From the NCBI GenBank assembly GCA_000004695.1, contig CM000152.2, positions 3,936,001-4,000,000 of the forward strand: a stretch of DNA of 64,000 bases, in the 5' to 3' direction. The first letter of the stretch is position 1. The number at the start of each line of letters is the position of its first letter. Source of the DNA: Dictyostelium discoideum. Its lineage: Eukaryota. A program made the translations under genes and the position numbers. The notes below the pieces were generated by a model. That model was not told the origin of the DNA, made no database searches, and saw nothing but the letters and a program-made list of their open reading frames with translations. Positions 59,610 to 63,200 of the stretch are shown piece after piece.

Positions 59610-60800
59610 CAATAATACCCCCTTTACCATTTTCTTATTTTGAATATTTTCCAGATTTGGAAATTTTTTTATGGCCATTGGATTTTACTACAAATAGTAA
59701 AAATCCCTTTTTTAATTTCAAAAAATTGAAAAATGATCGAGTATAAATTGAAAAAAAAAAAAAATAATCATTTATACAAATGTAAAAAAAAAAATAACAA
59801 ATAGAAAATAAATCTAACTCTAACAATTAAAAATGGTTCAGATAAAGTTGGCTGATAGTATAAAATATAAAAAAAAAAAAAGGGAATTACTTTAAAAAAA
59901 AATATATAACAATTTAAATCTAACTTTAATATTCTTTTTTATAAAGTAATTTTATCAAATAAAAATGGTTTCCATCAATAATGACCTAGATAATATAATA
60001 TATGAATCAATACCAATCAAATGATAGAGAAAGGAAAGATTTATCTATGCACTATATCATAAAGAATCATCATATTAATATTATTTCTAAACAAATAAAA
60101 TGAATCAATTCAAATCAAATGTCAGAGAAAGGAAAGATTTATCTATGCACTATGGCATTTTGAAAAGAAGATGATATCATTTATAAATAAATAATTAGAA
60201 ATCAAAAAACTAAAAATAAATTAAAAACTAAAAATAAATATTAAAAGGTTTAATAAAATATTTTTTTTTTCATTATTGTTTAAAATATTAATTTAATTTA
60301 TTTAAAAAAACTATTTCTTTTTAATTCTATTATTAATAAAAAATTAAAATTATTCAAATGGTTGGTTTTTATGTTTTTCAAAATAAAATTAAAATTGTAA
60401 GTTGGTAATTATTATTTTTAGGTTAAAAATTAAAATTAATTGAAATGGGGGTATTGTTATATATGATGGGTTTAGTTTTTATTTATTTCATAAATTATTT
60501 AATAATTTAATAAAAAATTGTGTGATGTGGTATATCTGAATAAAAACAAATTTGTTTATCAATTAGAAATTTCAATTTTATATAATTTTATCCGTTTTTG
60601 TATAATCTGTCAAAAATGAATATTACAAAATAAATAAAATAACATAACAAAGTATTTTGTTTTATTTGAATTTTGTGGTAACCTTTTAGACTTTGTTATT
60701 TGTAAAAAATTGGTTAATTTACAAATAAGAATAATAAGAATAATTAAAAAAAAAAAAAAAATAATAAAAAAAGTGATTTGATTTAATATTCTTAAAAAAA
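59610..60800 (+). repeat. ~1.15-kb direct repeat, copy A (functional hssA copy-5 upstream region)
   Basis: Aligns at ~85-90% identity with 61995..63200 in the same orientation (...CCCCTTTACCATTTTCTTATTTTGAATATTTCCAGATTTGGAAATT... to ...AAAAAATTGGTTAATTTACAA..GATTTGATTTAA). Contains the type-A hssA promoter blocks in its 3' third. Confidence 0.8.
60016..60055 (+). repeat. 40-bp conserved motif ATCAAATG[AT][TC]AGAGAAAGGAAAGATTTATCTATGCACTAT; four copies (60016..60055, 60114..60153, 62435..62474, 62540..62579)
   Basis: Two copies ~100 bp apart inside each 1.15-kb repeat. Copies are near-identical while surrounding sequence is more diverged. Confidence 0.7.
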
Positions 60801-60912
60801 AAAAAAAGTATAAATTAAAAGTTTTTTTTTTTTTATTATTCATTATACCAATTATTTATAATACAAAATACAAAATAAATCAAATCAAATCAAATCAAAA
60901 TAAAATAAAAAA

Positions 60913-61278
60913 ATGACACTCTTTTGTAAGTATTTAAAAAATTTTATTTACCTTTTTTTTTTAAAAAAAAATAATTTAAAAACTCATTAAATTAATAAAT
61001 TATTAGCATCGATCTCATCATTGTCAAGTTCAATGACAAGTTCAAGATCTATTTTCGCTTCATTTGGTAGTGGAACAATTATGGGTTCAAATTCTATTTC
61101 ATGTACTGTCGGTAGTGGTAGTTGTGGTAGTGGTAGTGGAGGTTGTGGTGATTTAACTGGTGGAGCTAAATCAAGTGGTGGTAGTTGTGGAGGAAAAGGT
61201 GGATCACACAATCATGGCCATGGTCATGGACCACATGGTCAAGGTGGTAAAGGTTCAGGAGGTTCATGTAGTTGTTAA
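60913..61278 (+). CDS. hssA/2C/7E-family protein, dispersed copy 5 (exons 60913..60925, 61007..61278)
   Basis: ATGACACTCTTTT|GTAAGT micro-exon; acceptor ATTAG|CATCGATCTCATC. Product [52 protein letters not shown]...GSCSC*. The ORF-track start at 61021 is a TTG. Confidence 0.7.
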
Positions 61279-61603
61279 TATTTACACATATATATATTTT
61301 AAATATTACTTCAATTGTAATAATAAATTATTTAAAATAAAAATCGCACCTATTTTAATTTTATTTAAAAATAATTTATTTTTATTTTTATAGTAAATTT
61401 AAAAAAAGGACTATTTCGCACCATTAAATCTTTTGTTTATTTGTGAATATTAAATTATTTTAATCCTGTTTTAAATAATTATTAACCTCTGCCTTTACTT
61501 CAATCCTTTCACCAGTAGTACTCTAAAGATTTACAACGGAATTTGCACCTTGATACCGAAAATTTTTTTTTTTTTTTTTTATTTATTAATTCATTTGTTG
61601 ATT

Positions 61604-61706
61604 ATTTATTTATTTATTTATTTATTTATTTATTTATTTATTTATTTATTTATTTATTTATTTATTTATTTATTTATTTATTTATTTATTTATTTATTTA
61701 TTTATT
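61604..61706. repeat. (TTTA)n microsatellite, ~25 units
   Basis: Perfect ATTT/TTTA tandem repeat between hssA copy 5 and repeat copy B. The track ORF 61543..61758 (FIYLFIYL...) is an artefact of it. Confidence 0.95.
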
Positions 61707-61994
61707 AATTTTTCAAAATTTAAAAAAAAAAAAAAAAAAAAAAACTTTTTCATTTTAAAATAATAAAAATATAAAATAAATTTTGAATTTTTTTTATTTG
61801 TTATTTTTATTATTATTTCTCAATCAAATAATTAAAAAAAAAAAAAAAATACTCTTTAAATTAATAATTATTAATAAAAAAAGAATTTTTTTTTCCCACA
61901 ATCAAACATGTTTGAACTATAATTTTTTTTTTTAACAATAAATCTTAAAATAAAAATAAAGTTTTAGTGCTTTTCTAAAGAAATAGATATCTTT

Positions 61995-63200
61995 TTATTG
62001 TAATAACACCCCTTTTACCATTTTCTTATTTTGGATATTTCCAGATTTGGAAATTTTCTTTTTGGCTATTGGATTTTACTTAAAATAGTAAATTATTTTT
62101 TTTAATTTCAAATAATTTAAAAAATTGAAAAATGATCGAGTATAAATAGAAAGTTTTTTGAAAAAAAAAAAAATAATAACCATTTATACAAATGTAAAAA
62201 AAAAAATAACAAATAGAAAATAAATGTAACTCTAACAATTAAAAAGGTTTAGATAATAGTTGATTGATAGTTTAAAATATAAAAAAAAGGTAAAGCCATA
62301 AAAAAAAAAAATAATAAATAACAATTTAAATCTAACTTTAATTATATATATATATATTATAGAGTAATTTTATCAAATAAAAATGGAAAAAATTCAATTA
62401 TAATCAAGATAATATAATTTATGAATCAATACCAATCAAATGATAGAGAAAGGAAAGATTTATCTATGCACTATATCATAATGAAAGGTTGATCATCATA
62501 TTAATATTTATTCTTACCTTATAAAATGAATCAATTCAAATCAAATGTCAGAGAAAGGAAAGATTTATCTATGCACTATGGCATTTTGAAAAGAAGATTA
62601 TATCATTTATAAATAAATAATTAGAGATCAAAAAACTAAAAATAAATTAAAAAACTAAAAATAAAATTAAAAGGTTTAATAAAATATGTTTTTTTTTCAT
62701 TATTGTCTAAATTATCAATTAAATTAATTTAAAAAAACCATTTCTTTTTAATTCTATTATTAATAAAAAATTAAAATTATACAAATCGTTTATTTTTATG
62801 TTTTTCAAAATAAGTTGGTCATTTTTTATTATTTTTGGGTTAATTGAAATGGATGTATTGTTATATATTCGATGGGTTTATTTTTTATTATTTCATTACC
62901 ACCATAAATTATTTTAATTATTTAATAATTAATAAAAAATTGTAAAATGTGGTATGTCTAAATAAAAACTAATTTTTTTATCAATTAGAAATTTCAATTT
63001 TATGTATTTTTATCCGTTTTTGTATAAACTGTCAAAAACGAATATTTACAAAATATATAAAATAACAAAACCAAGTATTTTGTCGTTTGAATTTTGTGGT
63101 ACCTTTTTGACTTTGCCTTTTTTAAAAAATTGGTTAATTTACAATAAGAAAAATTAAAAAAAAAAAAAAAAAAAAAAAAAAAAAAAAGGATTTGATTTAA
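61995..63200 (+). repeat. ~1.15-kb direct repeat, copy B (orphan hssA upstream region, no hssA gene following)
   Basis: See copy A. After copy B the sequence runs directly into the 3' end of the minus-strand WD40 gene at 63282. Confidence 0.8.

Follow-up and report, generated by a model that had tools for sequence, protein, structure and literature searches.

We analysed a 64,000-nucleotide stretch of the Dictyostelium discoideum genome (GenBank assembly GCA_000004695.1, contig CM000152.2, positions 3,936,001 to 4,000,000, forward strand; hereafter the window), whose right-hand part carries hssA5, a gene of the hssA/2C/7E family, between two long direct repeats. We refer to the left repeat as copy A, to the right repeat as copy B, and to the two repeats together with everything between them as the block. 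The block is set between two neighbouring genes. Reconstruction of the gene upstream of copy A gave a three-exon methyltransferase-like gene, the product of which is identical to AX4 XP_640791.1. The neighbour downstream of copy B was recognized from its gene call and from Pfam WD40 families in a second D. discoideum assembly; this WD40 gene lies on the minus strand, and its stop codon (63282-63284) is 81 nt from the end of copy B.

Comparison of the region with the window returned copies A and B in the same orientation as a single BLAST alignment (59540-60786 against 61923-63200) with 84.1% identity over 1316 columns, and a repeat search recovered the pair as a chain of blocks with offsets of 2391-2426 bp. 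A global alignment that included the flanks moved the left limit of homology out to approximately 59511/61886, where the copies begin with T9 and ATCAAACA, and demonstrated a sharp right end of both copies at 60786/63200 (...GATTTGATTTAA). With these limits copy A (59511-60786, plus strand) measures 1276 bp and constitutes the upstream region of hssA5 and the left terminal repeat of the block, while copy B (61886-63200, plus strand) measures 1315 bp and constitutes a truncated second unit and the right terminal repeat. The original prediction, which was made from the letters of the window, had described a same-orientation pair flanking hssA5 at 59610-60800 and 61995-63200 with roughly 85-90% identity. 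Both alignments confirm that the pair is real, its left ends had been placed about 100 bp short, and the identity was about right (84% with gaps and 92% at aligned sites). At aligned positions the copies differ by 91-98 mismatches over 1217-1239 sites, corresponding to 92.1-92.5% identity or 7.5-7.9% divergence, and are further separated by 44-45 indel events (about 36 per kb). The offset from A to B ranges from 2375 to 2414 bp, as constant as a tandem segmental duplication would give. No other sequence similar to the 5' ~750 bp of the copies was found in the 64-kb window. An A run in copy B (63156-63187, A32) is represented in copy A by a counterpart of 16 nt (60746-60761), and the copy B run is 4 nt shorter in the second D. 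discoideum assembly, indicating an unstable tract.

The interval between the copies is 1099 bp long, and hssA5 is the only family match within it. The core promoter of hssA5 (60809-60834, plus strand) consists of TATAAAT at 60809-60815 followed by T13 at 60822-60834; it lies outside the repeat and is lacking after copy B. In the spliced model, hssA5 (60913-61278, plus strand) is composed of a 13-bp exon 1 (60913-60925), an 81-bp GT...AG intron (60926-61006) and a 272-bp exon 2 (61007-61278) that includes the stop codon. The 94-aa product matches PF05710 over its full length (residues 1-94 on profile positions 1-90 of 90) with 50 bits against a curated cut-off of 21.4, and hssA5 is an intact member of this family. 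The hssA/2C/7E family comprises nearly 100 genes in D. discoideum, described as having a 13-bp first exon and then a single second exon of about 200 bp (PMC6198379). The exon layout of hssA5 agrees with this description, including the 13-bp exon 1. The 3' flank of the gene and the spacer that follows (61279-61885, plus strand) contain A/T runs and an ATTT/TTTA microsatellite (61562-61711) with a perfect (TTTA)25 at 61605-61704. The gene, its 3' flank and the (TTTA)25 tract thus lie between the copies as originally described. No hssA gene is present after copy B, which, again as predicted, runs to the 3' end of the convergent WD40 gene, and copy B stops approximately 22 nt upstream of the position where a TATA box would be expected. 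Judged from this arrangement, copy A would act as the promoter of hssA5, and copy B is probably a promoter-distal region that lacks a core promoter and is oriented towards the WD40 3' end.

The hssA5 gene may have gone unannotated, as no identical protein is present in the collection searched and the annotation of the second D. discoideum assembly (GCA_054883475.1) calls zero genes in the 3.8-kb gap at this locus (11233-15051 of the extracted locus). Long proline-rich open reading frames (ORFs) run antisense to hssA coding regions at 60987-61211 and 1730-1972 (both minus strand), and most likely arise as a side effect of the Gly/Ser-rich codon composition of these genes. A homologue search with the antisense ORF across hssA5 gave no match.

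The 3' ~450 bp of copies A and B have several sequence blocks in common with the upstream regions of hssA1-4, which form a head-to-tail array of diverged units at the left window edge (start codons at 625, 1648, 2819 and 3911). The proposal that the 3' third of each copy carries hssA promoter blocks passed a chance control. Allowing up to 3 mismatches, the block TGTATAAACTGTCAAAAA was found 6 times against 1.0 expected, and the block TGGTGGTATTGTTATAAAT was found 7 times against 0.2 expected. These numbers represent 6-fold and 35-fold enrichment over shuffled sequence, and none of 100 shuffles reached the observed count for either block. Apart from one weak 3-mismatch match per block, every match falls either in one of the two copies or in the upstream region of an hssA gene. 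Wherever both blocks were found (hssA1-3, copy A and copy B) they retain their order and a distance of 151-172 bp. The pattern search places them on the plus strand at 60446-60464 and 60599-60616 in copy A and at 62850-62868 and 63021-63038 in copy B. The array itself (window 1-4300) looks as if a unit of two genes had been duplicated; the region upstream of hssA1 is like that of hssA3, and the region upstream of hssA2 is like that of hssA4, and the offsets within these pairs are about 2.2 kb (625 to 2819 and 1648 to 3911).

The 90% cluster of the methyltransferase-like protein includes orthologues from nine other assemblies (GCA_054883475.1, GCA_054859385.1, GCA_054859355.1, GCA_054859235.1, GCA_054859205.1, GCA_054859145.1, GCA_054859325.1, GCA_054859025.1 and GCA_036169595.1), and these orthologues were used to find the corresponding loci, labelled L002-L010. 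L002 is D. discoideum GCA_054883475.1, an assembly made independently from the AX4 lineage, L003 and L004 are GCA_054859385.1 and GCA_054859355.1, both labelled D. discoideum, and L007 is D. firmibasis. L002 is 99.93% identical to the window over 15.8 kb, with 6 substitutions and 2 homopolymer indels, and contains the whole block including (TTTA)25. The assemblies of the eight relatives (L003-L010), namely two divergent D. discoideum strains, two D. cf. discoideum, two D. citrinum, D. dimigraforme and D. firmibasis, all lack the block (8 of 8), and the gap between the methyltransferase and WD40 genes is there only 112-196 bp. These empty-site spacers align to the left flank of the window up to 59513-59519 and to the right flank from 63204-63242, and the flanks meet in a T-run. 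Because the short spacers of all eight relatives align to both flanks in this manner, the stretch from about 59511 to 63208, comprising copy A, hssA5, the spacer and copy B, is one insertion of approximately 3.7 kb on the AX4 lineage. The block begins where copy A begins and ends where copy B ends. A single-copy ancestral state, from which a tandem duplication at the locus would start, was found in 0 of the 8 relatives, and when hssA proteins were compared by tblastn with all ten loci, none of the relatives showed an hssA-like gene within 10 kb of the site. The local duplication around a resident hssA5 that the original prediction had envisaged is not borne out by these results; copy B is absent from the relatives together with the rest of the block, and the site, empty in all eight, received hssA5 and the two copies as one piece.

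The differences between the window and L002, complete over the 15.8 kb, are at 50163, 50196, 50201, 58365, 58368, 61106, 50441 and 63156. Five of them are a C in the window against an A in L002 beside A/T runs, two are homopolymer lengths, and the change at 61106 (C>G, window against L002) replaces Thr by Ser in hssA5. These differences could be reference errors or differences between stocks.

The left flank (59459-59510) is the original 3' flank of the methyltransferase-like gene (stop codon 59456-59458) and ends in T10 (59500-59509), part of the target T-run; the empty sites of L003, L004 and L006 align with it up to 59513-59519. The right junction (63201-63221) consists of 8 unassigned nt, AGTTAATC, then T9 (63209-63217) and CATT, a span within which the boundary is placed no more finely. 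The right flank (63222-63284, minus strand) is the original 3' flank of the WD40 gene, with AATAAA-type signals and the stop codon. The T-runs of T10 to the left and T9 to the right of the block compare with T12-T15 at the empty sites. The AATAAA-type signals of both neighbouring genes are kept in the flanks beside the block, which fits a tolerated insertion. A DUSE-like (Dictyostelium upstream sequence element) sequence near the start of copy B, TCCCACAA at 61894-61901, was rejected as a candidate, as the motif occurs at chance frequency (9 found against 9.9 expected) and no stable fold lies downstream.

In an effort to date the insertion, the divergence of the copies was compared with that of the adjacent 2257-codon ORF. 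At four-fold sites of this ORF the AX4 sequence differs by 6.8% from L003/L004, by 9.5-13.4% from the D. cf. discoideum assemblies and by 26-33% from the other species. Orthologous intergenic DNA of AX4 and L003/L004 differs by about 5% at aligned sites, with about 35 indel events per kb. The 7.5-7.9% between copies A and B, set against 6.8% to the nearest relatives without the block, points to an old event. On these sequence comparisons A and B began to diverge around the split of AX4 from L003/L004 or earlier, and an origin in the laboratory era is ruled out. The values for L003 and L004 against AX4-type sequence (window 48467-64000), 6.8% at four-fold sites and about 5% in intergenic DNA, are also of interest in themselves. 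Such divergence is high for strains of one species, and L003/L004 may be a divergent lineage.

The feature is best described as an old, lineage-specific duplicative insertion of an hssA cassette, a case of ordinary gene-family spread. The unit of the block, consisting of upstream region, core promoter, hssA gene and 3' flank, is about 2.4 kb, and the length of the block is 1.55 times the A-to-B offset. We consider it probable that 1.55 cassette units were copied in a single event at the DNA level into a break in the T-run. In this scenario one piece of hssA-family DNA would have entered the T-run of the ~120-bp convergent spacer between the methyltransferase-like and WD40 genes, where repair synthesis into the chromosome break would have copied it until synthesis halted about 22 nt short of the TATA box of the second unit. 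Such repair synthesis is, in our view, the most likely mechanism. The 1.3-kb terminal direct repeats would follow from the geometry of the template, because any stretch longer than one head-to-tail unit starts and ends alike. A head-to-tail hssA array with units that had already diverged is a possible template, which we propose tentatively; a single unit that was traversed repeatedly, by way of a circular intermediate or a template switch, is a more doubtful one. As the second unit stops approximately 22 nt before the TATA position, the second hssA gene need never have existed, and most likely it never did at this locus. The original prediction had left it between a second gene body that was lost and one that was never copied. 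The second possibility is favoured. The pairwise alignment, which defined the ends of the copies, revealed no deletion scar after copy B.

Several points weigh against this explanation. No donor locus for the block was found in a search that covered the protein collection, metagenomes and the ten loci and did not extend to dictyostelid whole-genome DNA. The closest protein to hssA5 in a homology search of a 5.8-billion-sequence collection was HssA/B-like 64, at 66% identity, and a look-up of HssA/B-like 64 returned no record. Exact look-ups of the hssA5 exon-2 ORFs with ATG and with TTG starts gave no match, and neither did the antisense-ORF search or two metagenome scans for the donor. In addition, the target T-run masks any signature of junction microhomology or target-site duplication, and the timing fits both copies that had diverged beforehand and copies that entered as identical sequences early on the AX4 branch. 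Finally, the sampling of D. discoideum amounts to the AX4 lineage and two divergent strains, so that the block need not be fixed in the species.

The insertion of a single cassette, followed by tandem duplication in place and deletion of the second gene body, would generate the same arrangement. This history is the main reading of the original prediction, shifted to a time after the insertion. The 7.5-7.9% divergence of A and B is compatible with the early AX4-branch timing that this history implies, and tandem duplication of hssA units is evidently common. It nevertheless takes three events instead of one, and its deletion would have to take out about 1.1 kb, comprising the second TATA box and gene together with the 3' flank, halt at the edge of the block and spare the 3' flank of the WD40 gene, leaving neither a scar nor a gene remnant after copy B. 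A resemblance of the internal junction to the left flank of the target, examined as possible microhomology or flank duplication, proved not to be significant, since 6-17% of other T-run flanks score equally, and it does not help this history. We regard it as unlikely. A block that was ancestral at the site and was precisely lost in all other lineages would agree with a divergence of A and B slightly greater than the distance from AX4 to L003/L004, as the duplication may predate that split. This would require clean independent losses in L003/L004, L005, L006, D. citrinum, D. dimigraforme and D. firmibasis, each of which would have left the same short spacer and T-run with no remnant, and such an unparsimonious history is hardly credible. 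The suspicion that the repeat is an artefact of the reference assembly draws on nothing more specific than the general difficulty of AT-rich repeats, and can be set aside with near certainty: the independent chromosome-level assembly L002 has the same structure including (TTTA)25, and with ~8% of sites differing between them, A and B cannot have been produced by collapsing or mis-joining the reads of a single sequence.

A mobile element with long terminal direct repeats, of the long terminal repeat (LTR) type or another, might also have carried a captured hssA gene to the site. The block resembles such an element in being inserted DNA with direct repeats at its very ends, in a purine-rich run before copy B and in a tRNA gene 1.55 kb from the site, and several Dictyostelium retroelements target tRNA genes. 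The purine run is uninformative at approximately 85% A+T, and the distance of 1.55 kb is far greater than the roughly 50-100 bp from tRNA genes at which tRNA-targeted elements insert. The repeat termini are not TG...CA but a T-run and ATCAAACA at the start and GATTTGATTTAA at the end, and no terminal inverted repeats other than A/T runs are present. A primer-binding site is likewise missing, as the sequence after copy A, TATTCTTAAAAAA, shows no complementarity to the 3' end of a tRNA, and the 1099-bp interior contains hssA5 alone with no gag or pol. The 3' part of the repeats is an ordinary hssA promoter common to the cellular hssA1-4 genes. The original prediction had excluded an LTR element and had named a dispersed repeat family, or target-site duplications and terminal repeats, as outcomes that would overturn it; its exclusion is upheld, with an LTR retrotransposon rejected on the grounds of its ends, primer-binding site, gag, pol and cellular promoter, and neither the 64-kb window nor 233 kb of related loci holds a further copy of the repeat. 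A mobile element with such repeats is a very improbable source of the block.

Within each copy, the 5' part contains a tandem pair of hairpin-like sub-repeats of approximately 65 nt. On the plus strand of copy A the pair occupies 60002-60164 (r1A, 60002-60066; r2A, 60100-60164), and in copy B it occupies 62421-62590 (r1B, 62421-62485; r2B, 62526-62590), also on the plus strand. Each sub-repeat has a 26-nt core, GAGAAAGGAAAGATTTATCTATGCAC, flanked by a 9-bp stem. The core is exact in all four window copies, with none expected by chance, and it recurs as one exact match in D. firmibasis (L007 9555-9580) with a diverged tandem partner adjoining it (motifs at L007 9408-9481 and 9530-9594). The D. 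firmibasis motif lies between the tRNA-Ala and methyltransferase genes, a position that is not orthologous to the sub-repeats of the block, although the orthologous insertion site is under 2 kb away. Sub-repeat r2A and the second D. firmibasis copy have 32 nt in common. For the stem around the core, 91% of cells are paired, whereas sliding the partners gives 22-45%, and the changes in the stem include one pair that appears as AU, UG, CG and UA and another that appears as CG and UA; these stem statistics rest on about four independent sequences. When folding was compared with shuffled sequence, the D. discoideum copies folded no better and the D. firmibasis copies gave z values of -2.4 and -2.9. 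Copies A and B differ less in the segment with the motif pair than elsewhere in the repeat (4.7% against 8.7% mismatches, and 4 against 40 indel events; Fisher p = 0.017), which suggests constraint or gene conversion.

Searches for relatives of this motif were negative. No Rfam match was obtained at E <= 5 in 59400-63300, and across the whole window the tRNA-Ala alone reaches a gathering score. A covariance model built here detected no further copies in 233 kb, and the motif core was not found in any paper. Two candidate functions were rejected. Short ORFs that open the sub-repeats (MNQ...) have ATA in place of ATG in D. firmibasis and no Pfam match. The sequence TCAATTCAA within the sub-repeat was considered as a STATa site; it is not kept in D. 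firmibasis, and the literature search gave only primer sequences. The exact core, the compensatory stem changes and the lower divergence of the segment between A and B are the reasons to consider an undescribed functional element, either a protein-binding hairpin or a small structured RNA, that would have stayed conserved in D. discoideum and D. firmibasis against a neutral divergence of about 33%. We hold this to be a speculative and rather unlikely reading. If true, copy B would not be a dead orphan promoter but would carry two working copies of the element.

The tRNA gene mentioned above is a tRNA-Ala(AGC) at 57886-57958 (minus strand), between the large ORF and the methyltransferase gene, and it is kept in L003-L007. 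The length of the spacer around it varies from 0.5 kb in AX4 to 2.4 kb in D. firmibasis (L007 7577-10000). Downstream of the tRNA, the D. firmibasis spacer contains a GC-richer stretch without ORFs (about 7700-8350), which may be a remnant of a tRNA-targeted element; no coding remnants were found in this long spacer. The possibility that the 5' part of the repeat derives locally, out of the spacer between the tRNA and methyltransferase genes, was also examined and rejected, as k-mer sharing with the D. firmibasis spacer is at background and the two show no collinear similarity apart from the ~90-nt motif.

In the block, a single step in the expansion of the very large hssA/2C/7E family has been captured, with its empty site documented. 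A cassette was gained between two conserved genes, and the 3' ends of both neighbours were left undisturbed. The known empty allele makes the locus a natural experiment in which a 1.3-kb upstream region without a core promoter is directed towards the WD40 3' end; comparison of AX4 with empty-site strains could show whether the orphan copy B drives antisense transcription. For users of the AX4 reference, the locus is structurally unlike that of all relatives examined.

Among known systems, Skipper, DGLT-A and DIRS-1 are LTR retrotransposons of Dictyostelium. The block is like them in being inserted DNA with long direct repeats and differs in that its interior is a cellular gene with an intron and its repeats hold a cellular promoter. 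With an in-place tandem duplication that leaves a truncated unit it has in common the orientation of the copies, the offset of about 2.4 kb and the incomplete second unit; such a duplication, however, needs a resident single-copy ancestor, whereas the relatives are empty and the whole structure was inserted. Laboratory stocks of D. discoideum carry large recent duplications of 15 kb or more (PMC2643946), and the block likewise is a structural change that, in the present sampling, is confined to the lineage of the laboratory strain; in contrast to those duplications, it is 3.7 kb long and, with a repeat divergence of about 8%, long predates laboratory culture. The closest likeness is to the dispersed duplication that seeds a tandem-array family such as hssA/2C/7E (PMC6198379), in which a cassette of promoter plus gene appears at a new site, and the block agrees with it in the 13-bp exon 1, the Pfam domain and the upstream blocks. 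It departs from this pattern in its upstream region, which at 1.3 kb is about twice the whole intergenic spacer of the hssA1-4 array, and in that more than one unit was copied, leaving a second upstream region without a gene.

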